Positions 23,101-63,652 of a stretch of DNA of 64,000 nt are shown piece by piece; within the stretch, counting starts at the first letter, position 1, and every line of letters begins with the position of its first letter. The DNA lies in contig CAZFGG010000001.1 in assembly GCA_964518425.1 (NCBI GenBank), positions 54,597 through 118,596 of the forward strand, in the 5' to 3' direction. The position numbers were made by a program, and so were the translations under genes. Source of the stretch: an uncultured Gammaproteobacteria bacterium (GTDB lineage: Bacteria > Patescibacteriota > Patescibacteriia > SBBC01 > CAIJZX01). The notes under the pieces were generated by a model. The model was not told the origin of the DNA. It was given only the letters and a program-made list of their open reading frames with translations, and did not search any database.

Positions 23101-23720
23101 GACCCGAGTCTAGCGGTCCGAGTGGATCGACGCCCCCTCCACCGAATGGACCATCAGGCGGAGGAGCGGGGCGAGCTGGCCGCCGACCCTCTGGAGGAGG
23201 ATCTGGCCAAGCCTATCGGCAAGCTCAGCGAGCTCAACCCCCATCCCCGGGATCACCAATTGTTGTCCCAAGCGATGCGGATTTTCCATCCGATGAAGAA
23301 CGAAGCCGTGATCCTCGAATCGAACGACTCTCGCCAAAGCAAAAGGAACTTCGTAACAAAGTCGTTCAGCTCAGAGACGTTGTGGCCGGGGACAACGCGC
23401 TGACGTCGGATGATCGCCGCAACCTGAGAGAAGCTTTTGAAACAATCTTGAGTGAGCGCGATCAGGCACGGTTCCAAGCATTGATTCAATACGCTAACAA
23501 GGGCGGCAAACTCTCGGCTACAGAGAAGAAACAGTTTGAGGATCTTCTCGTAACCCTGGGGGCTGCTGATACGACGTATCAACAACCCGGCGCTGCTCGT
23601 AGTAGGAGCAGTAATCTAGGAGCTTCAACACCTTCCGAAAAAAGAACGATTCGTGATGCCGAGGCTGAAATTATTGAAGAGCCGCCAAGTCCTCCTCAAC
23701 AACCGAAGGAGAATTCATGA
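20130..23720 (+). CDS. Large polytopic membrane protein, VirB6/TrbL-like (Gram-positive PrgH/TcpH/ConG-type architecture) with long low-complexity C-terminal domain
   Basis: Starts 2 nt after upstream stop; about 8 predicted TM helices in first about 330 aa, followed by about 850-aa hydrophilic domain with coiled-coil, Gly/Ala-rich (GGGKGGTAAAAAAGVAAGVAG) and Pro-rich tracts. Homology call by architecture/genomic context only. Confidence 0.45.
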   Translation: MKRFLSRLRRIPHRWALLSSLVIVVVLIVIWPSPARADVQQVIFSDILSPIVTAMIRLFALLTAYIVGLLILVAQQNNFINSAPVVTGYPIVRDLANMIFIIALLIIAAGTILRLENYRYNRLLGRLIVMAFLVNLARFITGFFIQTSQVFMLTFVNAFKDIALGNFANMFGLDVVLKFSQQNPTATDASLFMTLVGGLAMMIIAFCVILAVVVILIVRIVALWILTILSPLAYALRIIPNTERYASQWWSEFGKYVVSGPVLAFFLWLALALSAGSANQSSVLFQSVNGTSGANANLTNQVQQQLAPIQKDFVTEIFSMPRLMTFIVSIIFLMMGMQYASKSGGAGAGFAKRIYEKGLGVGATATGLNAIRSQINERAVAPVQGWIKNRQAARQGRIQERTAALESAGARIRSQAPVMPGILGREGRERAAASAQNIEGQRTQQFIQSRGLQNLPHDDVMTRFLTTTGREQLAAMTVLKDRGRINLQDPNQEKAFNQAMAWNRVPEGDRLKMREEIFRSNMGGMDENSIRARLGASTDPEQRIQFAQELQRRQLLKVGRAEDEQISAGLLNDLAANPERLQAARESMMKTNPDMAKKVIFGSLADSSSRRAFLSAIQQKQMNPSALNHAVQDTFARAGEAAAIGNFLNQISPDAETLNSYRRQMDPEAAQEIFSHLTIADDASAEERQKVARVTGEWGKAFTQSNGTFLTAKNSDGTSKKNSDGSDVTLAQEFASKLGGEEISKNISLQALKDQNVLQSLRRSDNMKASHWEALRKRNKETRAALEEGLKGYADHLGAEAYDKQGNIILDLEKLGGNEDRFKENEFVVRNLMLASKGKENRYNLADEKARQAFERLVSGASAADLSDITKSPVYAAHTDTVNLLFGWKGKMNEVAEMLTENYQFAVDAMKETEKTLTEKIKAGGREGSIAYNRLKEMSKHPILSNYIAYPEKPSEGGGKGGTAAAAAAGVAAGVAGMAAAGGMGGSSQPGPESSGPSGSTPPPPNGPSGGGAGRAGRRPSGGGSGQAYRQAQRAQPPSPGSPIVVPSDADFPSDEERSRDPRIERLSPKQKELRNKVVQLRDVVAGDNALTSDDRRNLREAFETILSERDQARFQALIQYANKGGKLSATEKKQFEDLLVTLGAADTTYQQPGAARSRSSNLGASTPSEKRTIRDAEAEIIEEPPSPPQQPKENS

Positions 23721-48451: not shown

Positions 48452-48480
48452 AGTCGTTCAATTGCCGTTCAGCCTAGCAA

Positions 48481-49419
48481 TTATTTTGAAGTTTTGTCAA
48501 GTCCACCCATCTGTCGCAATGCCTTGATTCGTTCATCAATTGGCGGATGGGTACTAAAAAGTTTTGCTAGTCCGGTCGAGACTGGACCAAATGGATTGCT
48601 GAAAAACAAATGGGCGGTGGCATGATTGGCGGAATGCAACGGTTCGGCCGTGGTGTCGCGAATTTTCTCCAAGGCTCGGGCCAATCCTTCCGGATAGCGC
48701 GTGAGCAGAGCGCCTGAAGCATCGGCCAAAAACTCGCGCTTGCGCGAGACGGCCAACTGGATCAGCTGGCCGATCAGTGGCGCCAGGATGAGGAGAACTA
48801 AGCCGACAATCATCAGGACAGCCTGCAGTTGGTTCCCATTATCGTTATTGCTCCGCCTCCGCCCGCCCAACCAGCTCCACCGCCAGAAATAGTTTGAGAG
48901 CAAGGTGATCAGACCGACCAGAATTGCGACCAAGGTCATGTACCGGACGTCCTCGTTCTTGACATGGGATAATTCATGGGCCAGGACGCCTTCCAGCTCT
49001 TCATTTTTGAGTTGTTCGACCGCGCCGACTGTCACCGCTAGGGAACTGTGTTTTGGGTCACGGCCGGTCGCAAAGGCGTTGATTTGCCGGTCGGGAATAA
49101 CGTAGATCGCCGGCGTGGGCTGGCCGTTGGCGATACATAAATTCTCGACCAGGTTGTACAGCGCGGGGCTGTCTGATTTTTGAATTGGTCCTTGGGCGCC
49201 AGCGGTGGCCAGGGCGATACGGTCACCGGCGAAATATCCGGTCAGGCTGGTGGCGGTCGCGAAGGCAATGGCAATAATCAGCCCGCCTGGCCCGGCTTGG
49301 AGCAATCGTGTGAATACCCAGCCGATCAAAACCACCACCGCCACGAAAACGATGACCAAAACGATCGACTTCCGTCGGTTGGCCGCTACGAAATCATAGG
49401 TCGTTGCCATCAGCGGCAA
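48481..49419 (-). CDS. htpX: Membrane zinc metalloprotease HtpX (M48 family)
   Basis: HExxH motif HELSHVKNED; N-terminal TMs; conserved pairing with upstream lemA. Confidence 0.85.
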   Translation of the reverse strand: MPLMATTYDFVAANRRKSIVLVIVFVAVVVLIGWVFTRLLQAGPGGLIIAIAFATATSLTGYFAGDRIALATAGAQGPIQKSDSPALYNLVENLCIANGQPTPAIYVIPDRQINAFATGRDPKHSSLAVTVGAVEQLKNEELEGVLAHELSHVKNEDVRYMTLVAILVGLITLLSNYFWRWSWLGGRRRSNNDNGNQLQAVLMIVGLVLLILAPLIGQLIQLAVSRKREFLADASGALLTRYPEGLARALEKIRDTTAEPLHSANHATAHLFFSNPFGPVSTGLAKLFSTHPPIDERIKALRQMGGLDKTSK

Positions 49420-49423
49420 CGCC

Positions 49424-49978
49424 TTAGAACTGGACCTTGACTGGTTCTTTGGCGGCTTCGTCAGTCAGCCCAAAGAATTCACGGGTGGTAAAACCGAGGT
49501 TCCGGGCGAAGACGTTGGTCGGGAATGACTGAATCCGAGTGTTCAGATCACGGACGTTGCCATTGTAGAACCGCCGGGCGGCCTGAATCTTATTTTCGGT
49601 GTCAGACAGTTCGTCCTGGAGCTGGGAAAAATTCTGACTGGCTTTCAACTCGGGATAGGCCTCAGCCACGGCAAAAAGCGTCTTCAACGTCCCGGCCAAT
49701 TGGTTTTCCGCTTGGGCTTTGGCTTGTGGTCCCTGAGCGGTCATGGCGGCCGATCGGGCGGCCGTCACATTTTCAAAAGCTTGGCGCTCATGCGTGGCAT
49801 ACCCTTTGACTGTCTCAACTAAGTTCGGAATGAGATCGTAGCGGCGTTTCAGCTGGACGTCGATATCAGACCAGGCTTCGTCCGTTTGGTTCTTGAGCCT
49901 GACTAAACCGTTATAGGCTCCCCAAATCCAGAGTAAGATGAGAACGATCAGTCCGACGATAACCCAGAGAATAGGCAT
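49424..49978 (-). CDS. lemA: LemA family protein
   Basis: 184 aa; N-terminal TM MPILWVIVGLIVLILLWIWGAYNGLVRLKNQ...; typical LemA length and lemA-htpX arrangement. Confidence 0.8.
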   Translation of the reverse strand: MPILWVIVGLIVLILLWIWGAYNGLVRLKNQTDEAWSDIDVQLKRRYDLIPNLVETVKGYATHERQAFENVTAARSAAMTAQGPQAKAQAENQLAGTLKTLFAVAEAYPELKASQNFSQLQDELSDTENKIQAARRFYNGNVRDLNTRIQSFPTNVFARNLGFTTREFFGLTDEAAKEPVKVQF

Positions 49979-49987
49979 AGAGAAAGA

Positions 49988-50452
49988 TTACGAAGTAAGC
50001 AGTTTAAAAATTTTGGTGGCCGTGCAATGATCGGTCAGGGCTAAGTTGACATCCGATGCAACTTGAACCTGGTCACCCGCACGCAGCTGGTCCTGGCTCA
50101 GGTCACTCAGCCGGTCACCAGTGAGAGATTTGATGATCGTGTGCTCGTCGACGCTGACGGTGTAGAGACGATGGTGCGGTTGTCCTGAGTCATCAGTAAT
50201 AATGACATCGATGGAGAGCGCCGAGCCTTGAACTGCGGTTACACTCCCGATCATGTCTTGAAACGAACGAGGAGTAGCGGTTGGCGCGACGGTCTGCACG
50301 CGCGGGGTTCGTCGTTGATGCTGCTGGACATAGTTGACCACCAGGGCCACGACCACCAGACCAGCCGCCAGGCTCAGAACAACCCAGAACAGGCGGACCT
50401 GCTGACGATGTTCTTCGACCGATGAGGGGGTGGGTGACATAACGTGGATCAA
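49988..50452 (-). CDS. Hypothetical membrane-anchored protein
   Basis: 154 aa; single TM LFWVVLSLAAGLVVVALVVNYV then soluble domain. Confidence 0.4.
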   Translation of the reverse strand: MIHVMSPTPSSVEEHRQQVRLFWVVLSLAAGLVVVALVVNYVQQHQRRTPRVQTVAPTATPRSFQDMIGSVTAVQGSALSIDVIITDDSGQPHHRLYTVSVDEHTIIKSLTGDRLSDLSQDQLRAGDQVQVASDVNLALTDHCTATKIFKLLTS

Positions 50453-50499
50453 GTATACCGTGGTCAGGAGAGAGAAGCAAAACCGGTCGCATGCCGAGG

Positions 50500-50528
50500 T
50501 TGCGAATCGAGGAGAAGTATGGTATAGT
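50500..50528 (+). promoter_or_regulatory. Sigma70-like promoter TTGCGA-17-TGgTATAGT (extended -10) for the tandem secreted-protein array
   Basis: TTGCGA 50500-50505, 17-nt spacer, TATAGT 50523-50528 preceded by TGG. Confidence 0.55.
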
Positions 50529-50584
50529 ACGAGAGTCCTCTTCGGTCCAATCCTCCAAAAAAATTCATCGGAATATCTAAGGAT

Positions 50585-51460
50585 TTGGTCTTGTCACGAA
50601 ACCGAAAAAATACAGACCGACCATCAACCCTGCGACGCACAACCTTGCTGGCAGTTTTCTTCATGGCTGTCGCGACTATGCCGCTTGTTTCGCGGGCCTT
50701 CACTGAACCAAAGGGGTATCCAACAAACTATGTTTCAGTCAACGGTGTCGGTGAGGTACCGCAGTTCCTCAATGCCTCAAGCGTCAACCAGTTAAAAGAA
50801 GGTTCGCTCCTCATTGGTGATCGAAGCGGAAAAATCGCGAACTGCAATGGGGGCACGACAACCGGATGCAGCCGCCTCTGCTTGAACGCCGATCCAGCAA
50901 AAGGCACAACTGATAGTACCTGTATTACCACCTGGCAAGACCTCAACGGTTCGGTCAGTGGTTCTTTCTTGCGACGCTTTGCCGACAACTCGGCTGGTCT
51001 TGATATCGGCTATAGCCGACTGCAAGGCAATAGCGCCTCTGGCCACCTTGTCTCGTTGATTGTTGAACCGAATGCCGCCGCCGGGCACAATGCTCTGCGG
51101 GCCAATGGTCTAGCGGACACGAACTACGCTGCTCAGTTCGGCGGAACGCTCTTCATCGGCAATAAAACGAACGATGCCAAGCTCTGCTTGAACGACGCAG
51201 CAAACGATGGCAATCCAGTTGGGACATGTATTACGAAGTGGTCCGATCTCATTTCGACCACAACGAACATTATCCGTCTCCAAGAGCTCAGGACGTCCAT
51301 TGCTCCGGTTCCCGACCAAGGCAACGCCGGGGTTGTTGGGCCGGTTGAGGTCCCCTCGTTGATCCTCGGACAACCAGCCACCACATTAAATCCTACATTA
51401 AGCTGTGGCGATGGTCTCTGCAGTGCCAGCGAAATAGGGCAATGTCCGCTTGATTGCTAA
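50585..51460 (+). CDS. Secreted protein, member 1 of tandem CLN/C-I-T-S-W-motif family
   Basis: Signal peptide (…LLAVFFMAVATMPLVSRA); motifs SRLCLNADPAKGTTDSTCITTWQDL and AKLCLNDAANDGNPVGTCITKWSDL; C-terminal CGDGLCSASEIGQCPLDC. Confidence 0.6.
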   Translation: MVLSRNRKNTDRPSTLRRTTLLAVFFMAVATMPLVSRAFTEPKGYPTNYVSVNGVGEVPQFLNASSVNQLKEGSLLIGDRSGKIANCNGGTTTGCSRLCLNADPAKGTTDSTCITTWQDLNGSVSGSFLRRFADNSAGLDIGYSRLQGNSASGHLVSLIVEPNAAAGHNALRANGLADTNYAAQFGGTLFIGNKTNDAKLCLNDAANDGNPVGTCITKWSDLISTTTNIIRLQELRTSIAPVPDQGNAGVVGPVEVPSLILGQPATTLNPTLSCGDGLCSASEIGQCPLDC

Positions 51461-53036
51461 ACGCATGCCCCGAACGCTTCCGATCTTCATTTCTTCCGCG
51501 GCCCTCTTACTCTTCAGCTTGATCGTGATTGGTCGGACCGCAATAGCCGGACCAATAACCGGCGGCGGGGGACAACCGCCGTTTGTGAAGCTGGGTGTCT
51601 ATCAGGGAGTAATTTCGGTCGTCCCGCCCGGTGGAGCTGACGTGATGGAGATTGGTAACCTTGGCCGGGATATCGCGAGTAGCACGACGATTTACCTCCG
51701 CCCGGGGAGCCTGCCCGAGAAGATGTGTATCGGCGGGGTGAATAATGGCCAAGCCTGTCCGCCAGCAGCCTGCACTGGTGGGGTCTGCAGTAATGTTGCC
51801 CCGCGATTCTATAAATACGCGACATATGCGGAATCCGTACTTGATCTCGGAACTGGGCGACTCTGTCTGAATCCAAACGGCGCAGGAGTTTGGGATTGCC
51901 GGGGCTTATGGCCAAGCACCGGCGGGGCGGGCGATACGAACTGGCAGACGACCACGGTTGGCAGCATGACTGATCTCCAACCAATTTCCGGTTCGCCGGT
52001 GGTTGACTCAATTCGCGCCGGCACGCTGGCCAATCCGGTTCCGAGTGCGAACGGGACCGGCCTTGACGTCGAAACCAATGCTAACGCTCCGGCCGTTATT
52101 TTGAACGGGTTTCAGGGATTGACGACCGGATATTACAATTCCGGGCTGGGCTCAACCGTCGGCGGCCGAGTTGATATTTTCGGGAAACTACGGGCTCTCC
52201 TCTACGCTGGGAATGACTTGGAAATCGGCGCAAATGGAGGCGTGACGCCCTACAATGCGGCGAACGTCTATAGCCAGCTCAATAACATCAAAACCCACAT
52301 TGACGCTGATACCTTTGATGGGACGACCCCCATGCTGTTCCCAACGAATGGGAATTTGTTCTGGAAGGCCCAAACGGCCGGCCCATCGACGATCCACCGG
52401 ATGTGCTTACGAACGACGTCCGGTTACCTTTGTGTCGGTGGAACGAATCCGGGCACGAATGCCGGAACCCCCTGTCCTAATGGCAACAACACCGGTCCCG
52501 ACGCGACCAAGTGCATCGGCGGCGCGACATGTCAAACAATGTGCAGCACGACCGATTCAATCTGCGCCGCCAGCCCGGCAGCGAAGCATTGTGTGAGTAC
52601 CGGAGCAGCCTGTGTGACCTCACTCAACTGTCCAGGGGGCGACGCCTGTGTCCGCGGGCACTTAGTGACGGTAGCTGGCGGAACCGGTGTTTCGCCGACG
52701 TGTACACAGAACTGTCAAACAGTCTGCGCTGGATCAGCGTTTGATTTTGGCGCTGGTGGTGGGTCGCCAGCAGCTGGAAATAATATCATGTGTGATGGCC
52801 AAGCCGGCGCTGGAACCTGTAGCGCCTATGGGGAATATGCGACGGCCGATAGCGGCCAGACCGCAGCGCTCAACAACGCTTATGGGTCGTGCCAGCCGTT
52901 TCTCGACCTCGGCGGTGGAGTATTCTCTTGGCGCCAAATCTGCGATTGTTATTTGAGCGCTCCGAAGAACTACCTCCGAGCTAACCCGCCGGGCACGGGG
53001 GGCGATCTGTGCTCGAAACCGCTAACCGCTTCATAG
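51450..53036 (+). CDS. Secreted Cys-rich protein, family member 2
   Basis: Signal peptide; shared N-module PFVKLGVYQGVISVVP...LGRDIASSTTIYLRPG; RLCLNPNGAGVWDCRGLW; Gly/Cys-rich C-terminus; 11-nt overlap with upstream gene. Confidence 0.6.
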   Translation: MIAKRMPRTLPIFISSAALLLFSLIVIGRTAIAGPITGGGGQPPFVKLGVYQGVISVVPPGGADVMEIGNLGRDIASSTTIYLRPGSLPEKMCIGGVNNGQACPPAACTGGVCSNVAPRFYKYATYAESVLDLGTGRLCLNPNGAGVWDCRGLWPSTGGAGDTNWQTTTVGSMTDLQPISGSPVVDSIRAGTLANPVPSANGTGLDVETNANAPAVILNGFQGLTTGYYNSGLGSTVGGRVDIFGKLRALLYAGNDLEIGANGGVTPYNAANVYSQLNNIKTHIDADTFDGTTPMLFPTNGNLFWKAQTAGPSTIHRMCLRTTSGYLCVGGTNPGTNAGTPCPNGNNTGPDATKCIGGATCQTMCSTTDSICAASPAAKHCVSTGAACVTSLNCPGGDACVRGHLVTVAGGTGVSPTCTQNCQTVCAGSAFDFGAGGGSPAAGNNIMCDGQAGAGTCSAYGEYATADSGQTAALNNAYGSCQPFLDLGGGVFSWRQICDCYLSAPKNYLRANPPGTGGDLCSKPLTAS

Positions 53037-53040
53037 TTCC

Positions 53041-53946
53041 ATGCGCTCAATTCCGATTATTACGCTCATCGTCAGCTTCGTCAGTTTTGTTGCTCTGGCG
53101 TCACGACCCGCGATCGCCGGCCCAATCACGAACGGGCCATCGAGCGCGCCGTTCACGAAACTTGGTGTCTATCAAGGCGTCGTCAGTGTTGTCTCGAATG
53201 CCGACAATGCTGCTCTTGAGCTCGGCTACCTCGGCCGCGATATTGCCAGTACGGGTGACCTCTATTTCCGGCCATCCTTCACCGCCCGGGCGAATGGCGC
53301 CTACTTTACGCGGAATGGGAACAGTGCCGACTTTTACCTGAGCGGGAAACTCTGCCTGTTTAAACATGTCAGCAACATTATTGATCTGAACAGTATGTCC
53401 TGCAGTGACGGTTGGCCATCGGGGAGTGGTTCCGGCTCAAGTCTCTGGACGATCGTGGCCGATCCGGTAGCCGACCCCTTCACGAACGCCGTCAACGGCA
53501 ATTTCCTCCAGCCGATCAATACGAACTATGGAGTGCATATCGGCAGCTCCTTATCACCGGTGACCGGCGGGACAGCGCTGACTCTTGATGGCGCATCGTA
53601 CTCTTACCCACTCGGTGTCGCGAACCTTGGCTCCGGCGCAGCGCTCCAAACTCAAGGTCAAGTGAATTTAAACGCCTATGGCTACGTCAATGGTTTGATC
53701 TACATCAACGGTCAAGAAGTCTGGCATCGGCAGGGATTTTTCGGCGGGCCCGCTGCTCATGAAGGCCTTGGCTCGGGGCTGGATGCCGATATTGCTAATG
53801 GCAACAATGTCACGCTTGAACCCGCGACGTCCTGTAATGATGACGATACGAAACCCCGGGCCGCCTGTATTTGCTTTACCATCTTCCGAGTCGGATCGTC
53901 GCCGAATCCTTCAAAGCACTGCGCTGCTTTTTCAAACGCTTTCTAA
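53041..53946 (+). CDS. Secreted protein, family member 3
   Basis: Signal peptide; PFTKLGVYQGVVSVVS...LGRDIASTGDLYFRPS; GKLCLFKHVSNIIDLNSMSCSDGW. Confidence 0.55.
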   Translation: MRSIPIITLIVSFVSFVALASRPAIAGPITNGPSSAPFTKLGVYQGVVSVVSNADNAALELGYLGRDIASTGDLYFRPSFTARANGAYFTRNGNSADFYLSGKLCLFKHVSNIIDLNSMSCSDGWPSGSGSGSSLWTIVADPVADPFTNAVNGNFLQPINTNYGVHIGSSLSPVTGGTALTLDGASYSYPLGVANLGSGAALQTQGQVNLNAYGYVNGLIYINGQEVWHRQGFFGGPAAHEGLGSGLDADIANGNNVTLEPATSCNDDDTKPRAACICFTIFRVGSSPNPSKHCAAFSNAF

Positions 53947-54818
53947 TGAAGAAATCTTCAATTATTGCCATAAGTTTCTTAGCCCTGATCGTTAGCTGGA
54001 CATTCTGGCGTCAAACCGCCTTGGCCAGCCCCTCTTCAGGTTCAAGTACAACCTCGCCGACGACCGTCTACGATGGCGTCATCAGCGTCGCTCCGGGCGA
54101 TGTTGGGTCCGGGATTCTCGAACTTGGTTCGTCGGGGTCAGACATCGCTAGTTCGAGCGATATCTACGTGCGTCCAGAGCGGTTGTCTGAAACGAATGCC
54201 GTACGATTTTCGCCGAACGGGAAGTCCACCGTCCACCTTTACGCCTACGGCGGCCTTTGTCTCGGCGGTCTGTGCCGTGACACGTGGCCGGCGGTCAGCG
54301 GCGGGACCTTTTGGAACCTGGTTGGAGGCCAGTACGTTGAACCGGCTACCCTCAGCCAAGGCGTAACGTTTACCAAGACCCGCGCCGGCGGCGGGGCGGC
54401 CATGGAAGTTTTTTCGAACAACACGACTGCGGCCGCCTATATCAGCAATGTCAGCGCTGGCGCTAGTGCGGCGGCCTTAACAATCAACGGCCCGGCGTAT
54501 ATCGGAGGTGACCTGAATGTCACGGCCAGCGGCGGAGATGAAATTACTCTGCACGGCGGCGTCTGCCAGGGCGGTCCGGCCGACGGTGTCATCTGCTCGA
54601 GTAGCCCCAATTGTTCGCCGGGAATATGCGCGATTAGTGATTACCGGGTCTGGTGGTCGGGTAATGATGGCCGTGGGTCGGGGCTTGACGCGTCAAAGCT
54701 CGACGGGATTGATTTGGACTTTAAATACAACATCAGCAATAGCTCATGTAATTCCGGCTCGCTCAATTGCTTGTGTGGACAGTTTCCGAGTTTCACCGAA
54801 TGCTTAAAACTTCAATGA
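53946..54818 (+). CDS. Secreted protein, family member 4
   Basis: ATG 53946 overlapping upstream TAA; signal peptide MKKSSIIAISFLALIVSWTFWRQTALA; VYDGVISVAPGDVGSGILELGSSGSDIASSSDIYVRPE; GGLCLGGLCRDTWPAV. Confidence 0.55.
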   Translation: MKKSSIIAISFLALIVSWTFWRQTALASPSSGSSTTSPTTVYDGVISVAPGDVGSGILELGSSGSDIASSSDIYVRPERLSETNAVRFSPNGKSTVHLYAYGGLCLGGLCRDTWPAVSGGTFWNLVGGQYVEPATLSQGVTFTKTRAGGGAAMEVFSNNTTAAAYISNVSAGASAAALTINGPAYIGGDLNVTASGGDEITLHGGVCQGGPADGVICSSSPNCSPGICAISDYRVWWSGNDGRGSGLDASKLDGIDLDFKYNISNSSCNSGSLNCLCGQFPSFTECLKLQ

Positions 54819-56857
54819 TTCGTCGCCGACAACTCTTACTCTTGGCGGGTCTCGGACTCGGTGGACTATTGTTGTCGAAGGTCGCCCTCGCCCAAACGTA
54901 CGTCAACCCGTCCACCTCGTTTACTGGCCCGGTCGCGCCGGCTATCAACTCGTCATTGAATGACCAGCGGAAACTTGGTTCGCTGGGCGTCGGGCGGGCC
55001 GTGAATCCACAAAAATTCTGTCTCAACGCGACGAGCCTGGCCGACGCTACGAATTGCATTTCTTCGTGGTCTGACCTGTCCGGTCAATTCGGCGGACCAT
55101 TTGTCAGTTTATCCCAAGATGCGTGGACGCTGGCAACGCCCAGTAGCGCCTGTGGAGCTGGTACCCCGAAATCTCTTTGTACCGGTGACTATGCCAGCCA
55201 AAGCGGCTTCGTTCATGTTCAAGCCTCCTCACTGACGACTCCCCAGCAAGCCTTTTCAACGATCGTTCAGGGTCCAAATCTCCAGCTCTGTGATTATCCC
55301 CGTAATGGCAGCAAGACTCCCGGCCATTGTATCGCCGGCAGTCCGATGGCTGGGCAGAGCTGCTTCTTCAATAATGATTGCGGTTACCGCTCAACAGCAA
55401 TTTATGGCAATGACGGAAGTCCCACTAATGCTCAAAATGCAGCCGGTTATTTTTCGGGCGTTGTTTATGTGACGAGTCCGACGAGCGATCCCCTCCTTCC
55501 GAAGGGTCGTATTTGCTTAAATGGAGCGACGGAAGATTATTTTAATGATGTTCCTGGTGGAACTTGTATTACCTCTTGGTCTGAACTCGGCGCCAGTGGC
55601 TCAGGAACATATGTCAAACGTCAGCAAGGTACCCCGATTCTTCAGAACCCCGGGGCCGTGATCAGCGGAGTGATTGTCATGTCCTCGGCGACGACTGGCT
55701 CAACGGACGGATTACCAAGTACCTTCACCTGCGGCGACAGTTTTTGTAACGCGACGGCCGTCCCGCCCGAAACAGCAGCCTCTTGCCCGATTGATTGCTT
55801 TGCGATTCCTACGCCGCAGTTGTCAGTGGCCATTGCAAGTGACAAGGTGAACATGACAATTACCACGAAAACCCAACAACCGGCTGGACCAGTGAATATT
55901 ATTGTGGTCCGATCTGTTGGCCTGACTTCAAGTTTTGTTCCGGTCAATGGCGTGGCCTATACGATTGGCGAAACTATTGGTAGCGACATTATTGTTTATG
56001 CCGGCAGTGCTACGCAGAATAACACTTTTGTACAACAGGATACCACCTTGCCCGGCGCCGGGACGTACAGCTATCGCGCTTATCAAGCGAACAGCTATCC
56101 CCGGTACGGCGGCCCAGCTGACGCCCCACTTGGTCAAATTTATAAACTACAAACCTCGGTTAGTCCGAACGGCTCGGCCTTCATCAGTAGCAACGATGGA
56201 CAGATTGTCCACTGTTCAGCCAGCTCCGGCACCGGGTGCGTGGCCTACTACCTCTCCAGCAATACTCCGACGGTTGTGATCAGTTTTGATTCGATCGTCA
56301 CGACCAATACCTTTAATGGATGGACCGGATGTAACTCGACGGGTGGCTCTGGAGCGGGGAGTACGTGCACCGTTATCATGAGCACAAATAAATCGATTGT
56401 GGCCAGCTTCTCCAGTGGCGGTCCCAAAGGATGTTTCACCGGATCAACCTTGGTTGATACGCCGGCTGGACCTCGGCCGATAGTTGACCTTCGGGCTGGC
56501 GACGACGTTTTCACCTATGATCAAGCCACTGGTCAAACCGTGGTGAGTCCGATCCTTCGAACCTTCGTGCACTCTGATCAGGCATATGGCGTCGTGACCT
56601 TTACCGACGGAACAACCATTAACGTCACGTCAATTCACCCCTTCTACGACGCCCGGTGGAAAATGTGGCGAGAGATTGGTCACATGCGACCCGGTGATAT
56701 AGTTCTGCAAGGCCGAGGTCTCTCTGCCCGCCCAATCCGCATCGTCTCTCTCGAATTCTCGAGCGGGCAGGGAACGGTCTATAATATTGAAGTCGGCGGC
56801 CACCATTCCTACTACGTCAACGGCATCCTGGTTCATAATAAAGGCCGCGAGGGATAA
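54815..56857 (+). CDS. Secreted protein, family member 5, with C-terminal Hint (Hedgehog/intein-like, BIL-type) autoprocessing domain
   Basis: ATGA overlap at 54815-54818; signal peptide MIRRRQLLLLAGLGLGGLLLSKVALA; QKFCLNATSLADATNCISSWSDL and GRICLNGATEDYFNDVPGGTCITSWSEL; C-terminal about 140 aa GCFTGSTLVDT...VTSIHPFYD...VYNIEVGGHHSYYVNGILVHNK (Cys1, TxxH, terminal HN). Confidence 0.65.
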   Translation: MIRRRQLLLLAGLGLGGLLLSKVALAQTYVNPSTSFTGPVAPAINSSLNDQRKLGSLGVGRAVNPQKFCLNATSLADATNCISSWSDLSGQFGGPFVSLSQDAWTLATPSSACGAGTPKSLCTGDYASQSGFVHVQASSLTTPQQAFSTIVQGPNLQLCDYPRNGSKTPGHCIAGSPMAGQSCFFNNDCGYRSTAIYGNDGSPTNAQNAAGYFSGVVYVTSPTSDPLLPKGRICLNGATEDYFNDVPGGTCITSWSELGASGSGTYVKRQQGTPILQNPGAVISGVIVMSSATTGSTDGLPSTFTCGDSFCNATAVPPETAASCPIDCFAIPTPQLSVAIASDKVNMTITTKTQQPAGPVNIIVVRSVGLTSSFVPVNGVAYTIGETIGSDIIVYAGSATQNNTFVQQDTTLPGAGTYSYRAYQANSYPRYGGPADAPLGQIYKLQTSVSPNGSAFISSNDGQIVHCSASSGTGCVAYYLSSNTPTVVISFDSIVTTNTFNGWTGCNSTGGSGAGSTCTVIMSTNKSIVASFSSGGPKGCFTGSTLVDTPAGPRPIVDLRAGDDVFTYDQATGQTVVSPILRTFVHSDQAYGVVTFTDGTTINVTSIHPFYDARWKMWREIGHMRPGDIVLQGRGLSARPIRIVSLEFSSGQGTVYNIEVGGHHSYYVNGILVHNKGREG

Positions 56858-56860
56858 GAC

Positions 56861-58219
56861 ATGATTACGACCCGACTCCATCATCGCTCGTCCCGCTCAG
56901 TCTTCATTGTGGCTATTGTTGTCATGACATTGTTGTCGATATCCCGTCCGCTCTCCGCCCAAGTCTACATCGACCCAACTGGTCCGGCTGTTGGCGGTCG
57001 CTCGGCCACGCCGCTTGATACGTCGGCCACGACCCAACAAAAGCTCGGTTCCTTGCTGATTGGCCAGACCGGTCTTCCGGCCTCGCGGATTTGCTTGAAC
57101 GGGACAGGCAACCTCGTGGGTGGTGATGATGCGTCTCCCGGTAACCCAGGCGGCCACTGCGTGACCAGCTGGGCGAATGTGGTGAATTCCCTTGGCGCTC
57201 CCTTCGTTGATCTCGTCAAAACTGCGCCGAGTGGAGCGGCCGGAAATATCTCCAGCTACAACGCACCGAACTCGGGCTATGCTCGTCTGAAAGCCAGCGG
57301 CCCGGGAACGGCCAGCACGTTTTTGACGGAAGCCAATAACGCCGTTGGCGCCGGGACGACGACCGCTCTCTACGCCAGTACAGGGTATATTGAAGACTAC
57401 GCCGGATATTTTTCCGGAAAGTTCAGTATTGAACCGACGGCCATTAACCGAGGACGGCTCTGCCTCAATAGCACCTGTAACTACAACGCGGGCGATCCGG
57501 CTTGTCAGAACTTGATTAACAATTTCGGCTACTACTGCGTCTCTGACTGGTCACAAATCATCTCGAACACGAATGATCGACTCTCGCTACAAACATCCGT
57601 CAGTCCAACAATCGAGTCGGGCACGGTCTTGCTCAAAGAGGGGTTCAGTGCCGGCGCGGCGGTGATTGGGGTGCCCCCGTCGACTACGCCGCTCGGTACG
57701 ACCGTGCCATTCTGTGGCGATGGATTGTGTAGCCGGGAAATTCACGAAGATCAGTCAGGGAACGCGAACTACTGTGCCCTTGACTGCGAAACAATTCCTT
57801 TGCCCAATAACGTCACCGCCCAAACGATCACCTTTGGCATAGGGGTGACCGTCACGCCGACCGCTATTGCTTCAAGTAATACCCCGTATTTCCTCGTTGT
57901 TCGATCGTCGAATCCGAGCTTTGTCTTTGAGCCGCAAGACGGGGTGAAGTACAAAATCGGAGGAAATAGTACGTTCGCTATCGTTTACGCAGTGCAACGG
58001 CCAAATGCGAGCCCGTTCACCTTTTTGGACACCGCTTTCGGGATGATTGCAAATAAAGTCTACACGTACCATGTGTACGAAGCGAATCCTTATCCGCGGT
58101 ATCTGAAGGTCGCCAGTGGTTCGGGATTCAATTACACTTCAGTTACGGCCACGGCCGGACCAGCAGCGGTTGGCACCGGACCTGAGGAAAGTCCCGACGG
58201 CGGAGACATTCAACTCTAG
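56861..58219 (+). CDS. Secreted protein, family member 6
   Basis: Signal peptide; SRICLNGTGNLVGGDDASPGNPGGHCVTSWANV and GRLCLNSTCNYNAGDPACQNLINNFGYYCVSDWSQI; FCGDGLCSREIHEDQSGNANYCALDC. Confidence 0.6.
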   Translation: MITTRLHHRSSRSVFIVAIVVMTLLSISRPLSAQVYIDPTGPAVGGRSATPLDTSATTQQKLGSLLIGQTGLPASRICLNGTGNLVGGDDASPGNPGGHCVTSWANVVNSLGAPFVDLVKTAPSGAAGNISSYNAPNSGYARLKASGPGTASTFLTEANNAVGAGTTTALYASTGYIEDYAGYFSGKFSIEPTAINRGRLCLNSTCNYNAGDPACQNLINNFGYYCVSDWSQIISNTNDRLSLQTSVSPTIESGTVLLKEGFSAGAAVIGVPPSTTPLGTTVPFCGDGLCSREIHEDQSGNANYCALDCETIPLPNNVTAQTITFGIGVTVTPTAIASSNTPYFLVVRSSNPSFVFEPQDGVKYKIGGNSTFAIVYAVQRPNASPFTFLDTAFGMIANKVYTYHVYEANPYPRYLKVASGSGFNYTSVTATAGPAAVGTGPEESPDGGDIQL

Positions 58220-58224
58220 CGACC

Positions 58225-61200
58225 ATGGAACAACGACCACCAACGCATCAATCAACGCCTGACGCTTCTCGTCGAATGAGCTTAGCGCTGAAATTAGCGA
58301 TGGTGGGTGCTTTGTGCCTACCGCTGCTGATCAGCCGATCCTCTCAGGCCAGCTTTGAGGCGCCATCAATCAGCACCGTCAATATTATTCCGACCACGTT
58401 CTACGGGGTGTGGGGAAATGCCCGACATGCTCGGTTACCCACGGGAAACAACCTGGCGAATGATCCGACCGGAGACGAAGAAAACTTTTATGATATTTGG
58501 GCGGTCGGGGCAGACACGCGCGGTCTGGCGGGTGGGTGGCCGTGGCTCGACAAAGGGAGTATTTACCATTTCGACGGTACGCAATGGAGTAACGTCGAAT
58601 CAGATTCAGACAATAATTTCGACGGCCAGAATCAGCCAACAACATTCTATTCAGTCGTCGGCCAAGCCCCACCGGGAAATGGAAACGCTGAAATATGGTT
58701 TGGCGGCGAGGCTGATGCTCGGGACGGCTGCTCAACTATTCATTTTTTTGACACGAACGAGCACCTTGAACGCGTGCCCGAAACGTGGCGCAACCTCTAT
58801 CGCGCCCGGGTGCGTGACCTCAATAAATTAGACTGTACGCAGGCCGGCCACAACGTCAACTTGGACAGCGATGTCTACGCCATGGCCGCCGACCAGAATT
58901 TCGTCACCGGTATCGTGGCTGGTGGGGCCAACGGCATGTTGTACAGCCACTCAGTGTACTATGTGGCGGGAACAACAAAAGACACGTGGGATCAAATTTC
59001 CTTTCCGAACACTCAAAATATTACGGGTTTGGCCTACGCCTTGAACCGAACTGCATATGCCGTGGGCACGACCGCCACGACAACGGATATTAACGGCAAG
59101 CATCATCTCGATCGCGACTGTACAAATTCTGGCAGCCAAACAAGCGGTTTGTACAAAATTTCTGGCGGTGTTGTATTCTCATTGAAGTCACTTAGCGGGG
59201 CCTGTTTCTACGGCTTGACCGTTGGCAATCTTCCGTCGATCCGACCGGATCACAGCGCGAATTACGTCACGATTTGGATTGCCTCGTCCAAAGGAGTCTA
59301 TCGTTACGACGAAGGTTCCAACACCCTGACGGGGCCGCTCAGCGGCACGTCGGGCACGGTACTGCGAAGTATCACGAGCGTTGAACAACAGGGTGGAACC
59401 GGCCAAAATCTCCTGCGCAACCCGGATTTTGAATCCTGGGACTCGGATCCGAGTAATGCTGCTACCGATCTGCCGAATGACAATGCCACGACCTGGTTGG
59501 CCTCCGACTCATTCTTTGGTACCAATAACAGCGCCGGGAATTGTCTTGATGCCGTCAATAACAAGAACAGTAAAGACGTCATCGTTGAAGGCGGATCAAG
59601 TAATGTGGATCATGGCACCTATGCTCTCAAAGTAGCTCCGGCTGTTTACTACAATAGCCAGTCGAACTGTAATACGAACACCAATCCCCAATACACGGGC
59701 TTTGATGCGGTTTTCCAAACTGTCCCGTTGACGAACTGGGAGGGGCGAAAAATACACGTCACCGGAAAATACAAAGTGCAGTTCACGGGCGCCGCGAGCG
59801 CCCCGCACCCTCAAGGCGGAGTATCGATACTCTGCCCGACTGGCGGATACAGCGATCCCCAAGATGAACCGGACTGCAGTTATGAAAACCGTTCGGCTAT
59901 TCGGACCGCCAATCAAGGTAATACAACCGGCGATCCCAAGGCTGACGGCAAAGGTTTCTTGACCTTCGACTACACGATCTCGGTTAATAATACGCAGTTC
60001 TTCCCTCGAATTCTCGGCGGGACGAAAAGTCCCCGCCCGACGGATGCTGGCATGGTTCTGCAGATTCAATGTGAGGGTACGTATGGCGCTCAGGTCTGGT
60101 GTGATGACCTGCACGTTGAAGCGGTCGATGAGCCAGCCTTGCCGGCCTATGATCGCTTTGTCGTGACGGCCGTTGGCGAAGCGGGGAATATCATGTCGAC
60201 GTCCGACGGCCGTGCAGTGGGAATCGGTGGCGGTGACGCGAACGCATTTATCGTTGAGCGGGATGACGCGACGTCGACTGACCGACTTAATGGCGTCTGG
60301 GCAGTTGATCCTCAACATACCTACGCCGTCGGTCAAAACTCAATTATTGCCCAGCACCGCTCAGGCAACGTGACCGGCGGGATCTGGGTTGGCACGGCCT
60401 CACCGGTGTCATCGGGTAACGCTACGCTTGGCTGGATTTCCTCGAATTGTGCCAATCAACGCGACGCCAGCGGATCATCGCTCTGTACTCGGAGCCCGGA
60501 TACGTTTGGTCTTGATTTCCAAAACAACCAGCTCTCCGGCCGAGCTTGGTTTGGTAAGCAATACACGTCAGCCACACACGAAGACCAAGAAGCGACCAGT
60601 TTAGGCTCCTGCCAAGGCACTGCCCTGCTGGCTGGCCGACCCAATACCTACTCGATGACCGGCGCCTGTGATCGAACGAACCGCTGGTGCTTTAGCGACC
60701 ATAACCATGCCTGTAACCGCGATTTTGATTGCTATGGCCGCTGTCAAAAAGACCAGGGCGTTGTCTGTGCCGTCGATCTTGACTGCGAAGGAAAAACCGA
60801 CCTACCGGTCGGTACCCAAACGCCTCAGGCAACTAGCACGAAGTTATCCTCTCCTCCGGCCCTTCGACAAGTTTGTGGATCAAATAACGGCAGTCCCCAA
60901 GCATGCACCGGCTTAGGATGGTTGTCCTTTAATCAAGCTGACACCGGGGCCACGCCAGGGAGTTCCTGTGCTAGTAACGTGGATACCTGCTACCGGCTAC
61001 AAAATAACGGAGATATTATTGATGGTTGGGGTCAATTCCTGACGATGGCGAACCCCAATGATCCGAATCAGGATATCCCCAACAGCTGGGTCCATCTTCG
61101 GGGAGCCGATGTCTGCGGCGGGACAAGCGGCACCGCTTGCGCCAGCACCGCACCAAACTACGGGTATTACAACTGTCAAAACTGTACCGGTGCCTTATCG

Positions 61201-62457
61201 TGTAGTTTTTGCCAGGACAACCAGCAACACAGCTGTTTGTCCGGAACAAATTGTACCTACTATTGCCAGGGAACTGCCCAACCGTGCACGACGGATGCCG
61301 TCTGCGGTAGTGGGAAGAGCTGCGGCCCGAAGAGCGTCTGCTCGCTTGATCAAACAACAATTTGCTCGGGCGACCCCGATTGTACCGGGGGGAAGGGCCG
61401 ATGTGTCCAAGGCGCCGCCTGTCAGCAAGTGTCGAGCTGTAGTCAGTACGGAGTCAATTTTAATCCCCAGCGCCAACAGTTCAGCGGCTACGCCTGGAGT
61501 TCTGCCTTGGGATGGTTGGACTTCAGTTTTCTCCAGGTTGGTAACCCGCCGTACTTACAGACTCGTCTTGGCGATATCTACGCTAAGGGACGCGTTGGAA
61601 ATAGTTTAACTATTCCCGCGCCGGGAGGTTTATGCAACGCCACCTACCTCATCTCAGCCGGTAATTCCATCACCAGTTTCTGCTCGGTCCAAGGCGCGGC
61701 CGGTTTGCAGTCGCAAGCTCCAACTATCCCCTCCGGCGGTCCAACGAATAGCTACACGAACGTTCTCGGACGGCTTGATGTCACCGGGTTAGAAAAAGAT
61801 GTCGGTGGCGGGAGGAATAAATTTGGCACCCCGATCGTGGCGCTGGCTCCGGACGTGACCAACGACATAAGTTATAGCTTTCCTGACTATGGTCCTGATA
61901 CCCTTGGCGGTAATCACATCCCGCTCAATGGGAAGATCTTTACCGTTGGGACCGGGGGGAGCGATACGATTACGATCAACCAGCTCCTTCGATTCCTGCC
62001 AGGGACCACTTCACCCATCAGCAGCGGGGCGGGAGTGTTGATTGTCAACGGTAACTTACGCGTCAACAACCAATTGACCTATCACTCAGACAGTGTTTCT
62101 ACTATTTCTGACCTTCGTTCGCTCGCCTCATTCGTCGTCATTGTCAAAGGCAACCTCTTCATTGACCAAACCGTCACCAACATGGTCGGGACGTACTATG
62201 TACTCGGTACGGTTTGCACGGCTCCAGGGTCTCAAGCGAGCTGCACGTACGTATCGAACGGCAGTCAGTACCCCTTAACTATCCGAGGTCTCCTGATCGC
62301 GAAAGCCTTTGGATTTAATCGGACCTATGCTGGCACCATCGACAATCCGTCTCCATCGGAATTGATTATCTTCGATGGTCGTTTCCAGTCAAACCCCCTG
62401 CCGGGCATGACGGATTTCGCTAGCGCTTTGCCAAATACCTCAGGAGCCAATCAGTAG
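58225..62457 (+). CDS. Giant (1410 aa) secreted protein with Cys-cluster modules and GW(L/I)(S/D)F repeats
   Basis: Signal peptide (…LKLAMVGALCLPLLISRSSQA); Cys clusters (CDRTNRWCFSDHNHACNRDFDCYGRCQKDQGVVCAVDLDCEG; CSFCQDNQQHSCLSGTNCTYYCQG); LGWISSNC, GLGWLSFNQ, ALGWLDFSF. Confidence 0.65.
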   Translation: MEQRPPTHQSTPDASRRMSLALKLAMVGALCLPLLISRSSQASFEAPSISTVNIIPTTFYGVWGNARHARLPTGNNLANDPTGDEENFYDIWAVGADTRGLAGGWPWLDKGSIYHFDGTQWSNVESDSDNNFDGQNQPTTFYSVVGQAPPGNGNAEIWFGGEADARDGCSTIHFFDTNEHLERVPETWRNLYRARVRDLNKLDCTQAGHNVNLDSDVYAMAADQNFVTGIVAGGANGMLYSHSVYYVAGTTKDTWDQISFPNTQNITGLAYALNRTAYAVGTTATTTDINGKHHLDRDCTNSGSQTSGLYKISGGVVFSLKSLSGACFYGLTVGNLPSIRPDHSANYVTIWIASSKGVYRYDEGSNTLTGPLSGTSGTVLRSITSVEQQGGTGQNLLRNPDFESWDSDPSNAATDLPNDNATTWLASDSFFGTNNSAGNCLDAVNNKNSKDVIVEGGSSNVDHGTYALKVAPAVYYNSQSNCNTNTNPQYTGFDAVFQTVPLTNWEGRKIHVTGKYKVQFTGAASAPHPQGGVSILCPTGGYSDPQDEPDCSYENRSAIRTANQGNTTGDPKADGKGFLTFDYTISVNNTQFFPRILGGTKSPRPTDAGMVLQIQCEGTYGAQVWCDDLHVEAVDEPALPAYDRFVVTAVGEAGNIMSTSDGRAVGIGGGDANAFIVERDDATSTDRLNGVWAVDPQHTYAVGQNSIIAQHRSGNVTGGIWVGTASPVSSGNATLGWISSNCANQRDASGSSLCTRSPDTFGLDFQNNQLSGRAWFGKQYTSATHEDQEATSLGSCQGTALLAGRPNTYSMTGACDRTNRWCFSDHNHACNRDFDCYGRCQKDQGVVCAVDLDCEGKTDLPVGTQTPQATSTKLSSPPALRQVCGSNNGSPQACTGLGWLSFNQADTGATPGSSCASNVDTCYRLQNNGDIIDGWGQFLTMANPNDPNQDIPNSWVHLRGADVCGGTSGTACASTAPNYGYYNCQNCTGALSCSFCQDNQQHSCLSGTNCTYYCQGTAQPCTTDAVCGSGKSCGPKSVCSLDQTTICSGDPDCTGGKGRCVQGAACQQVSSCSQYGVNFNPQRQQFSGYAWSSALGWLDFSFLQVGNPPYLQTRLGDIYAKGRVGNSLTIPAPGGLCNATYLISAGNSITSFCSVQGAAGLQSQAPTIPSGGPTNSYTNVLGRLDVTGLEKDVGGGRNKFGTPIVALAPDVTNDISYSFPDYGPDTLGGNHIPLNGKIFTVGTGGSDTITINQLLRFLPGTTSPISSGAGVLIVNGNLRVNNQLTYHSDSVSTISDLRSLASFVVIVKGNLFIDQTVTNMVGTYYVLGTVCTAPGSQASCTYVSNGSQYPLTIRGLLIAKAFGFNRTYAGTIDNPSPSELIIFDGRFQSNPLPGMTDFASALPNTSGANQ

Positions 62458-62478
62458 CCGGATCGCAGCATCAGTACT

Positions 62479-62507
62479 TTGACTTGCGGTAGATTTTATG
62501 CTATACT
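62479..62507 (+). promoter_or_regulatory. Sigma70-like promoter TTGACT-17-TGcTATACT upstream of pilM
   Basis: TTGACT 62479-62484, 17-nt spacer, TATACT 62502-62507 preceded by TGC. Confidence 0.45.
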
Positions 62508-62587
62508 CAAAAGGTGGATAAGGCGTTCTTTCTAGCCCATGCTCTCGTTCTCAAGATTTCTGGGCTGATGGACTCTTCATTGACGCT

Positions 62588-63652
62588 ATGCCAGCATTTT
62601 CTCCAAAACAAAGCTTTCTCGGAATAGATATCGGCACTTCTAGCCTCAAGGTGGTGCAAATTGGCGACGATAACGGCCGCCCGCGCCTGATGACCTACGG
62701 CTACATTGAACAGCGGAACGACATCGTCAAAAGTGACGCCGCCGCTAGCCAACAATCGGTCACGGCTGCCCTAAAATCGCTCTTACGCGAGGCACGCGTG
62801 ACGACCACGAAAGTGATCGCGGCCTTGCCGAGCTTCACTGTTTTTAGTTCGATCATCAGCCTACCCCTGATGACCCGGAAAGAACTCAATTCGGCCGTTC
62901 GTTGGGAAGCAAAAAAATTTGTACCGATGCCGATCGATGACCTTGTCTTGGACTGGAAACTGTTAAAGGAAAGTCCAGTCAAAGGCCAGCCTGCCGATCG
63001 CGCCCCGAAGAACCTCCGCGTCCTGATTACGGCCGCCCCCAAGAGCTTAGTCAAGCGATACATTGATATTTTTAAAGCCGCCGACTTACAGCTCGAGAAC
63101 CTTGAAACCGAAGCGCTGGCTCTCGAACGCTCCTTAATCGGGAGTGATCCGGCGCCGGTCATGATCGTCGATATCGGTGCCGTCGCAACGAACATCGCTA
63201 TCATGGTCGACGGTATTCCCTTGATCAATCGCAGTATCGATGTGGGCGGAGATACGATTACGAAGTCGATTGCCCAAAGCATGACCGTTGATCACGATCG
63301 GGCCGAACAATTCAAACGCGACTTCGGTTTGAGTACCAGCCAACAATCAATTTCCCAGGTCCCAAAAACAATTGAATTCGTCCTGAGCTCGATTGTGAAT
63401 GAAATCCGCTTCGTCTTGAATCTCTACCGGAACCAGGGGACTGGTCCGATTGAAAAAATTATTCTGGCCGGCGGTTCAGCTTTTCTCCTCAACCTGCCAG
63501 CCTATCTAGAAAAAACCTTGTCGATCAAAACATTCATTGGTGATCCTTGGGCACGGGTCGTCTACCCGGTCGAGCTCAAACCCGTGTTGCAAGAAATTGG
63601 TCCGCGTTTCGCGGTCTCGATCGGATTAGCCATGCGAGAAATCGTCGCCTAA
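62588..63652 (+). CDS. pilM: Type IV pilus assembly protein PilM (actin-like ATPase fold)
   Basis: N-terminal FLGIDIGTSSLKVVQI; C-terminal ILAGGSAFLLNLPAYLEKTLSIKTFIGDPW; 354 aa typical for PilM. Confidence 0.8.
   Translation: MPAFSPKQSFLGIDIGTSSLKVVQIGDDNGRPRLMTYGYIEQRNDIVKSDAAASQQSVTAALKSLLREARVTTTKVIAALPSFTVFSSIISLPLMTRKELNSAVRWEAKKFVPMPIDDLVLDWKLLKESPVKGQPADRAPKNLRVLITAAPKSLVKRYIDIFKAADLQLENLETEALALERSLIGSDPAPVMIVDIGAVATNIAIMVDGIPLINRSIDVGGDTITKSIAQSMTVDHDRAEQFKRDFGLSTSQQSISQVPKTIEFVLSSIVNEIRFVLNLYRNQGTGPIEKIILAGGSAFLLNLPAYLEKTLSIKTFIGDPWARVVYPVELKPVLQEIGPRFAVSIGLAMREIVA

Follow-up and report, generated by a model that had tools for sequence, protein, structure and literature searches.

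Hint gene and precursor protein

The window, as the whole 64,000-nucleotide stretch of contig CAZFGG010000001.1 analyzed here is called, contains on its plus strand a gene for a secreted protein that ends in a Hint domain, the fold of inteins, bacterial intein-like (BIL) domains and Hedgehog proteins. The parts of the gene were delimited by using a list of open reading frames (ORFs), the translation, and an alignment of homologues (alignment A1), and are collected in Table 1 together with the gene that follows. The start codon and the stop codon of the gene before it share bases (ATGA), and this overlap favors 54815 as the start over an ATG at 54800 and also favors translational coupling. Initiation at 54800 would give a 685-amino acid (aa) form of the same protein, which is entry P0001 in an NCBI-derived public collection.

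The hydrophobic leader and the A-x-A/QTYV junction behind it were common to the orthologues in alignment A1. The N-terminal domain that follows (referred to as the CLN family) has nine invariant positions in the same alignment (C69, L70, N71, C81, W85, C234, L235, C251 and W255). Profile searches of Pfam and NCBIfam returned zero matches for this domain, and no relative was found among Protein Data Bank (PDB) sequences searched with the family profile. One orthologue (P0003) ends in an InlB B-repeat-like region.

An earlier note, made from the sequence alone, had placed a Hint domain at 56432-56857 on a member of a secreted family, and these coordinates and the motifs proved exact when compared with the DNA. 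Blocks A, B and G, which it had named, are present with Cys540, Thr605/His608 and His674-Asn675 intact, and block F is intact as well. The protein terminates in ...VYNIEVGGHHSYYVNGILVHN-KGREG, and nothing lies behind the Hint in the way of an extein, as had been claimed, or of a toxin: the KGREG tail is followed by the stop codon, and the next gene encodes a secreted paralogue. The two lengths given beforehand need adjusting. The “about 140 aa” of the Hint agrees with the last 141 residues of the precursor, of which 136 (Cys540 to Asn675) form the domain proper and five the tail, and the “about 540 aa” ahead of it agrees with a stretch of 539 residues that includes the signal peptide of ~27 aa. 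The residue directly after Asn675 (+1) is Lys, not a Cys, Ser or Thr nucleophile.

A recent horizontal insertion of the Hint was considered and rejected, as base composition gave no such signal (G+C of 0.545 in the Hint vs 0.536 in the rest of the gene, and 0.58 vs 0.55 at third codon positions).

Table 1. Features of the Hint gene and of the gene downstream, in window positions
Feature	Position	Strand	Description	Basis
Whole gene	54815..56857	+	680-aa precursor: signal peptide, CLN-motif N-domain, Gly-rich linker, Hint, 5-aa tail, stop	ORF list
Predicted Sec signal peptide	54815..54895	+	MIRRRQLLLLAGLGLGGLLLSKVALA/QTYV, ~27 aa	Read by eye from translation
N-terminal extracellular domain	54896..56410	+	CLN family; two C-L-N...C..SW motifs, many conserved Cys	Alignment A1
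Gly-rich linker	56411..56431	+	SSGGPKG, ending in the -1 Gly of the predicted scissile Gly539-Cys540 bond	Translation
Hint domain	56432..56839	+	136 aa, Cys540 to Asn675	PT-HINT profile (E = 3e-13); AlphaFold model (pLDDT 93.2); Foldseek matches
Block A	56432..56470	+	CFTGSTLVDTPAG; nucleophilic Cys540 (TGT, 56432-56434)	Cys and Phe invariant in 24 terminal Hints
Block B (TxxH)	56627..56638	+	Thr605-Ser-Ile-His608 in VTSIHPF; codons ACG TCA ATT CAC (Thr605 56627-56629, His608 56636-56638)	His invariant, Thr at least 90% conserved (alignment A2)
Block F region	56777..56818	+	VYNIEVGGHHSYYV	V123 and N125 invariant, Y124 nearly invariant (alignment A2); VYN also in 2lwy
Block G	56834..56839	+	Terminal His674-Asn675; codons CAT AAT	V-H-N invariant (alignment A2)
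C-terminal tail and stop	56840..56857	+	KGREG (AAA GGC CGC GAG GGA) and TAA (56855-56857)	DNA and translation
Downstream gene	56861..58219	+	452-aa N-domain paralogue, itself with a signal peptide; context and not Hint cargo	ORF list, alignment A1

Identity and fold of the C-terminal domain

The Pfam profile PT-HINT (PF07591) matched residues 546-675 through profile positions 1-136 of 137, scoring 50.6 bits against a cut-off of 27.7, and the NCBIfam profile for the intein C-terminal splicing region (intein_Cterm, TIGR01443) also passed (17.2 bits vs 15.6). Four further profiles stayed under threshold: the Hedgehog Hint module (PF01079; 28.2 bits vs 29.7), which aligned only over profile positions 11-86 of 213, corresponding to the first ~75 residues; Hint_2 (PF13403; 28.1 bits vs 28.4), which aligned only over positions 2-39 of 147; Vint (PF14623; 19.3 bits vs 27); and Intein_splicing, which matched more weakly than PT-HINT. 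The profile search proposed in the earlier note therefore did return a Hint family, PT-HINT, while Hint_2 and Vint, both named there, fell short. A hidden Markov model (HMM) of the subfamily matched the domain with E = 1e-61. Six-frame translation of the window and of a related contig (L001) revealed neither a second Hint nor a hidden N-terminal half.

Comparison with PDB sequences by using phmmer gave as best matches 8w20, a 1368-aa “intein C-terminal splicing domain-containing protein” (E = 1.5e-10), and the Clostridium thermocellum BIL domain 2lwy (E = 5e-10). Both alignments span residue 1 to the terminal His-Asn, and Cys540 aligns with residue 1 of 2lwy. The AlphaFold (AF2) model of the domain, built from a 52-sequence alignment, had a predicted local distance difference test (pLDDT) score of 93.2 and a predicted template modeling (TM) score of 0.88. 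When this model was compared with PDB structures by using Foldseek, 67 matches were obtained at E ≤ 0.001, and the best 50 were all inteins, BIL domains or Hedgehog. TM scores were 0.86 for the Npu DnaB mini-intein (4o1r; root-mean-square deviation 1.4 Å), 0.83 for the Tetrahymena BUBL BIL2 domain (6y75), 0.81 for 2lwy (30% identity) and 0.78 for Hedgehog (1at0). The C-terminal region belongs to the Hint superfamily, having the fold, the nucleophilic Cys540 and the Thr605/His608 pair, and by its sequence the domain belongs to Pfam PT-HINT.

A clade of chain-terminating Hint domains

An exhaustive HMMER search over 1.84 billion cluster representatives returned 17,539 relatives at E ≤ 0.001. The best 150 of these, together with homologues of the window protein, were classified by Hint position and copy number: 30 proteins had a single Hint with a tail of ≤ 12 residues, 11 had several Hints with the last one terminal, 15 had a single internal Hint and 96 had several internal Hints. 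Within this set, the closest single-Hint relatives of the window Hint (45-58% identity) all carry the domain at the extreme C-terminus. In a neighbor-joining tree of 309 Hint instances, the window Hint fell into a clade of 11 members with a terminal Hint in each (11/11). Judged from this tree, the position at the end of the protein is characteristic of a clade rather than accidental.

The carriers are extracellular proteins unrelated to one another. They include type IV pilin-like proteins with an N-terminal methylation motif and an Ig domain (P0020, P0057 and a Saccharibacteria protein in L002), zinc metalloproteases with Big_7 repeats (P0021, P0022 and a Kerfeldbacteria protein in L003), a Kelch/FN3 protein (P0035) and further members of the CLN family (P0023, P0037). 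Among named sources, the Hint protein has its nearest relatives in a Candidatus Saccharibacteria metagenome-assembled genome (MAG) (L002) and in Candidatus Kerfeldbacteria (L003, and MBI5405334.1, which is P0037). These relatives make it probable that the source organism belongs to the candidate phyla radiation. Terminal Hints of the wider family were found in Bdellovibrionales, Myxococcota (including cultured Sorangium) and Bacteroidales and, among DPANN archaea, in Woesearchaeota and Nanoarchaeia; because these occurrences extend across many phyla, the terminal-Hint architecture is widespread in sequence databases. Literature searches on terminal Hints of prokaryotes (bacterial pilins and candidate phyla radiation proteins), which did not extend to the original BIL surveys, found no discussion of them, and their biological purpose is not described in the literature searched.

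Conservation was followed in an alignment of 24 terminal Hints (alignment A2; 51% mean column identity), in which the invariant residues are Cys1 and Phe2 at the start, His in TxxH, Val and Asn in the VYN motif of block F, and Val-His-Asn at the end. None of the Cys, TxxH and His-Asn residues on which the domain was first recognized is missing from the window protein, and of these Cys, His and His-Asn do not vary among the 24 relatives. Positions flanking the domain were compared in 29 terminal Hints. The residue before Cys1 is Gly in 14 of them, and Cys, Ser and Thr do not occur directly after Asn (0/29). The tail behind His-Asn has a length of 1-10 residues, with Lys or Arg at +1 or +2 in 24 of the 29 (HNK, HNAK, HNLK and similar; in the window, the Lys codon at 56840-56842), and is otherwise unconserved.

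Two other arrangements were seen in the same sequence family. A large family of database proteins (P0011, P0012, P0014, P0024, P0025 and others) has three to five tandem Hints joined by HNKGGGG/CF linkers, behind which come a stretch rich in Gly, a hydrophobic segment and a pair of Tim44-like domains (PF04280). Proteins of this kind account for many of the 96 multi-Hint proteins among the best 150 matches, and we know of no description of this architecture. In Lachnospira MAG contigs (L034, L036, L038 and L045), arrays of Hint ORFs end in VHN[T/M/K]CG followed by ~110 variable residues. Here Hints of this family, with Cys at +2, are put to their classical use in polymorphic toxins.

Homologues with, without and with half of a Hint

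Six homologues of the window protein that have no Hint (P0002-P0005, P0007 and P0008) carry C-terminal tails rich in Gly, such as ...GGPGGGGIN or ...GGGGGGGSQTDL, and in alignment A1 these tails align with the SSGGPKG/C of the window protein, the predicted cleavage site. For two of the six (P0004 and P0007), on contigs L083 and L084, the place in the syntenic operon is identical to that of the window protein. The orthologue P0006 (L001, 10001-11854; Hint part ~11580-11854) retains only blocks B to G, corresponding to positions 59-136 of the PT-HINT profile, and has lost ~56 residues, including Cys1, by an in-frame deletion and not by a frameshift. A full Hint is carried by P0023 on contig L082, but there the gene lies elsewhere in the cluster. 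Because the Hint is present, halved or absent among orthologues of the syntenic operon, it is, on this comparison, an optional C-terminal addition to proteins that work without one.

Identity to the window protein was higher in the Hint than in the N-domain for each CLN family member compared: 58% (retained half) and 40% for P0006, 57% and 37% for P0023, and 49% and 38% for P0037. By this measure, the Hint is better conserved than its carrier domain within the family.

Gly-rich ends were also noted more broadly. Tails of the type GGPGGGG, GGGGGGG or PDGGDIQL end the Hint-less proteins P0002, P0004, P0007 and P0008 and a window protein (58180-58216), and the Hints themselves are flanked by Gly-rich linkers. 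Such tails could be preferred Hint landing sites or Hint scars.

Genomic neighborhood

The Hint gene lies within a tight plus-strand run from 50585 to 62457, in which genes are separated by a few bases or overlap. All proteins of this run have N-terminal hydrophobic leaders, and most have C-L-N...C..SW motifs. The run is followed by pilM, so that the operon of secreted proteins abuts a pilM-led pilus-assembly operon. The same arrangement was found on four other contigs (L001, L082, L083 and L084). The conserved order (45896-63652 in the window) begins on the minus strand with genes for ClpB, an M48 peptidase, LemA and a protein of ~155 aa, and continues on the plus strand with five to seven secreted CLN-motif paralogues, a secreted protein of 1400-1540 aa and, where the contig reaches that far, the pilM-led operon. 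A functional link may exist between this secreted cluster and the machinery of the type IV pilus.

At the Hint gene, no toxin domain, immunity-like small gene, RHS repeats or filamentous-haemagglutinin repeats were found, and only five residues follow His-Asn. A read-through fusion into the downstream paralogue was also considered. The two genes are in frame in the window (56861 - 54815 = 2046) but not in L001 (10001/11857) or L082 (8001/9977), and the downstream protein has its own signal peptide; read-through was rejected for these two reasons. In the secreted window proteins inspected, neither an LPxTG motif nor a C-terminal membrane anchor was found.

Comparison with known Hint systems

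The C. thermocellum A-type BIL domain, the most sequence-similar of the listed structure matches, has in common with the window Hint a ~135-aa fold without endonuclease, Cys1, TxxH, a VYN-type block F and a terminal His-Asn, as well as the lack of Cys, Ser or Thr at +1 and the occurrence in variable, secreted bacterial proteins. The two differ in that the window Hint, with five residues past His-Asn, has effectively no C-terminal flank to release or join. A-type BIL domains were reportedly described by Amitai and colleagues in 2003 and by Dassa and colleagues in 2004. Retention of the C-terminal His-Asn is a character of the A-type (PMC7765530). Given its His-Asn end, its +1 residue and its variable secreted carriers, the window domain fits the A-type description. 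Neither the profile for B-type BIL domains (Hint_2) nor that for Vint reaches its threshold, and the His-Asn end is of the intein type, a motif that B-type BIL domains lack.

PT-HINT domains of polymorphic toxin systems sit just before a C-terminal toxin domain, which they release (Zhang et al. 2012, PMC3482391). PT-HINT was the best-scoring profile, matched over its full length, and the carrier in the window resembles toxin-system carriers in being Sec-exported. The window protein differs from those systems in lacking a toxin, an immunity gene and repeats of the filamentous or RHS kind, and the Hint does not stand before a toxin module. Of the likeness to polymorphic toxins and BIL systems that the earlier note had seen, the BIL part stands on the A-type features and the toxin part fails.

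Hedgehog and the nematode warthog and groundhog proteins have the same layout of a secreted N-domain followed by a C-terminal Hint, the same Gly-Cys-Phe cleavage tripeptide, and Hint-less paralogues of the N-domain, as in the ground-like and related families of Caenorhabditis elegans (PMC1636047). In contrast to these proteins, the window Hint is bacterial, retains His-Asn and is followed by no sterol- or adduct-recognition region (~60-70 aa in the Hog domain), and its PF01079 match is sub-threshold. Because His-Asn is kept, a +1 nucleophile is absent and no sterol-recognition-like extension is present, the features are those of an A-type BIL or PT-HINT domain rather than of a Hedgehog Hog domain. 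The Hedgehog-style reading of the earlier note is supported in outline, with a C-terminal Hint on a secreted protein and probable release of the N-domain, and is refined by the A-type BIL and PT-HINT comparison.

Tetrahymena BUBL BIL2 (6y75/6tmm) is also a BIL-type Hint and a close structural match. It hands its thioester to an amine, giving a Lys isopeptide by which a ubiquitin-like domain is conjugated to substrates (PMC8616854). It lies between two ubiquitin-like domains of a eukaryotic polyprotein and is only 19-21% identical to the window Hint, which has no ubiquitin-like flank. Class 1 mini-inteins such as Npu DnaB provide the best structural match and the same four splicing blocks. They differ from the window Hint, which has Lys at +1, a C-terminal flank of five residues, and a location other than a conserved site of an essential protein. 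Without a +1 nucleophile and a C-extein, canonical splicing is impossible.

Probable self-removal and alternative explanations

The Hint is probably a catalytically competent A-type BIL or PT-HINT-like domain, joined to the Gly-rich end of a surface protein exported through Sec, that removes itself at Gly539-Cys540 after export. The precursor would be exported through Sec and the Hint would then fold, after which Cys540 would attack the carbonyl of Gly539 in an N-to-S acyl shift. The resulting Gly539 thioester would be resolved by water or, through aminolysis, by the amine of the KGREG tail once this had been freed by cyclization of Asn675, a route reported for A-type BIL domains. In work attributed to Aranko and colleagues in 2013, such domains are said to be able to join their flanks without a side-chain nucleophile. 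The net outcome would be loss of the Hint and a mature CLN-family domain of ~512 aa ending in ...SSGGPKG, with or without KGREG, which would resemble the form encoded directly by the Hint-less orthologues. BIL domains without a +1 nucleophile give mainly N- and C-cleaved products (PMC7664689; PMC7765530). We infer cleavage, its site, its timing and the resolution of the thioester from the sequence comparisons, and on the conservation described above the release of the N-terminal domain by self-cleavage at Gly-Cys is the best-supported mechanism. On this view, strong conservation of the catalytic residues would not require that the host benefit, as selection on the host protein would hold a self-removing element to its chemistry, as it does with inteins.

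Several points weigh against self-removal. Conservation of the catalytic residues is also expected if the N-domain were ligated to another molecule, and does not separate release from ligation. The invariant terminal Asn is odd if only N-terminal cleavage matters, given that its cyclization would free only 1-10 residues. In P0006, which has lost block A with Cys1, the remainder of the Hint is still 58% identical to that of the window; the protein thus tolerates an appendage that is not cleaved off, and this C-terminal half may have some different role. Finally, the extracellular and possibly oxidizing setting could compromise the Cys1 thiol.

Thioester-driven ligation is the strongest of the alternatives, and we regard it as rather unlikely. 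Here, a specific nucleophile would capture the Gly539 thioester, so that the N-domain became covalently anchored, polymerized or attached to a host, with the Hint as leaving group; this nucleophile could be an amine or hydroxyl of the cell wall or of a lipid, the N-terminal amine or a Lys of a further subunit, or a molecule of the host-cell surface. Precedent is provided by Hedgehog, the Hint of which moves its N-domain onto cholesterol, and by the BUBL isopeptide. The carriers, type IV pilin-like proteins among them, are all extracellular proteins that would gain from attachment, the inspected secreted proteins of the window lack other anchors of the LPxTG or transmembrane kind, and the operon abuts the pilM pilus-assembly operon. 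Ligation might also explain the invariant Asn and the Lys or Arg that stands at +1 or +2 in most terminal Hints. On the other side, Hedgehog needs its sterol-recognition region, and the five residues behind the window Hint leave no adduct-recognition region of any kind. Orthologues at the same operon position function without a Hint, one of them (P0006) has lost Cys1, no conserved partner gene was seen, and the argument is drawn from analogy. The earlier suggestion that the N-domain is possibly ligated to a nucleophile found no direct support.

More speculative still, and somewhat less likely than ligation in the window protein itself, is the idea that the terminal-Hint clade as a whole is a self-contained, sortase-independent module that activates and ligates extracellular proteins (this protein, the pilin-like proteins and the secreted proteases, from sources that include Saccharibacteria and Kerfeldbacteria). 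A C-terminal Gly thioester would be made outside the cell and captured by an amine or hydroxyl of the envelope, of another subunit or of the host cell of an episymbiont, which would fix the protein covalently and be the bacterial equivalent of cholesteroylation by Hedgehog or of BUBL conjugation. The Lys conserved behind His-Asn might take part in this chemistry.

A non-catalytic use, in which the Hint would stay attached as a C-terminal binding or structural module, appears improbable. Blocks B to G persist in P0006 without Cys1, which suggests that part of the domain can be kept without N-terminal cleavage chemistry, but the clade-wide invariance of Cys1, the TxxH His and His-Asn is a signature of chemistry and not of binding. 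To our knowledge, there is no precedent for a catalytically intact Hint that is used purely as a scaffold.

Least probable, by a small step further, is a decaying relic of a polymorphic toxin, left functionless after loss of a toxin module behind it: the best Pfam family is indeed the pre-toxin HINT, Lachnospira and Myxococcota loci of the same sequence family encode classical proteins with a Hint and a C-terminal cassette, and P0006 shows that partial deletion of a Hint occurs, but no catalytic residue is missing or varies within the terminal clade, the Hint has diverged less than its carrier and matches the G+C of the rest of the gene, the terminal position is common to a coherent clade on many unrelated carriers and to many phyla, and the gene behind it is a secreted paralogue and neither an immunity gene nor an orphan toxin cassette.

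Hint domains are single-turnover modules of protein chemistry for which few natural uses are known, namely splicing in inteins, lipidation in Hedgehog proteins, toxin release and, in ciliates, ubiquitin-like conjugation. The toxin-less, chain-terminating Hint on extracellular proteins is a known domain in a little-studied end position, with expected chemistry and an architecture that is common in databases. A coherent, toxin-less clade that always ends extracellular proteins points to a further, uncharacterized use of the domain in envelope biology, among whose carriers are pilin-like proteins and proteases of ultrasmall episymbiotic bacteria that are hard to study. If self-removal is all that happens, the Hint would be an intein-like element that persists through its own excision from a tolerant C-terminal tail. 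If the N-domain were instead transferred to another molecule, a new route of covalent anchoring or adhesion would result, as well as a compact tool of 136 aa for ligating proteins at their C-terminus.

Other genes of the window

Elsewhere in the window, a VirB4/TraG-like ATPase gene (30040-31962, plus strand) and four consecutive genes for very large secreted proteins (1196-1878 aa; 5973-23720, plus strand) with Ig/FN3/BNR-like domains were found, along with few metabolic genes. ATPases and very large secreted proteins of these kinds are typical of candidate phyla radiation gene content. A leucyl-tRNA synthetase gene (1-2429, plus strand) is cut by the window start; its listed ORF includes a NUDIX domain (residues 193-312) that separates the editing domain from the remaining catalytic core.

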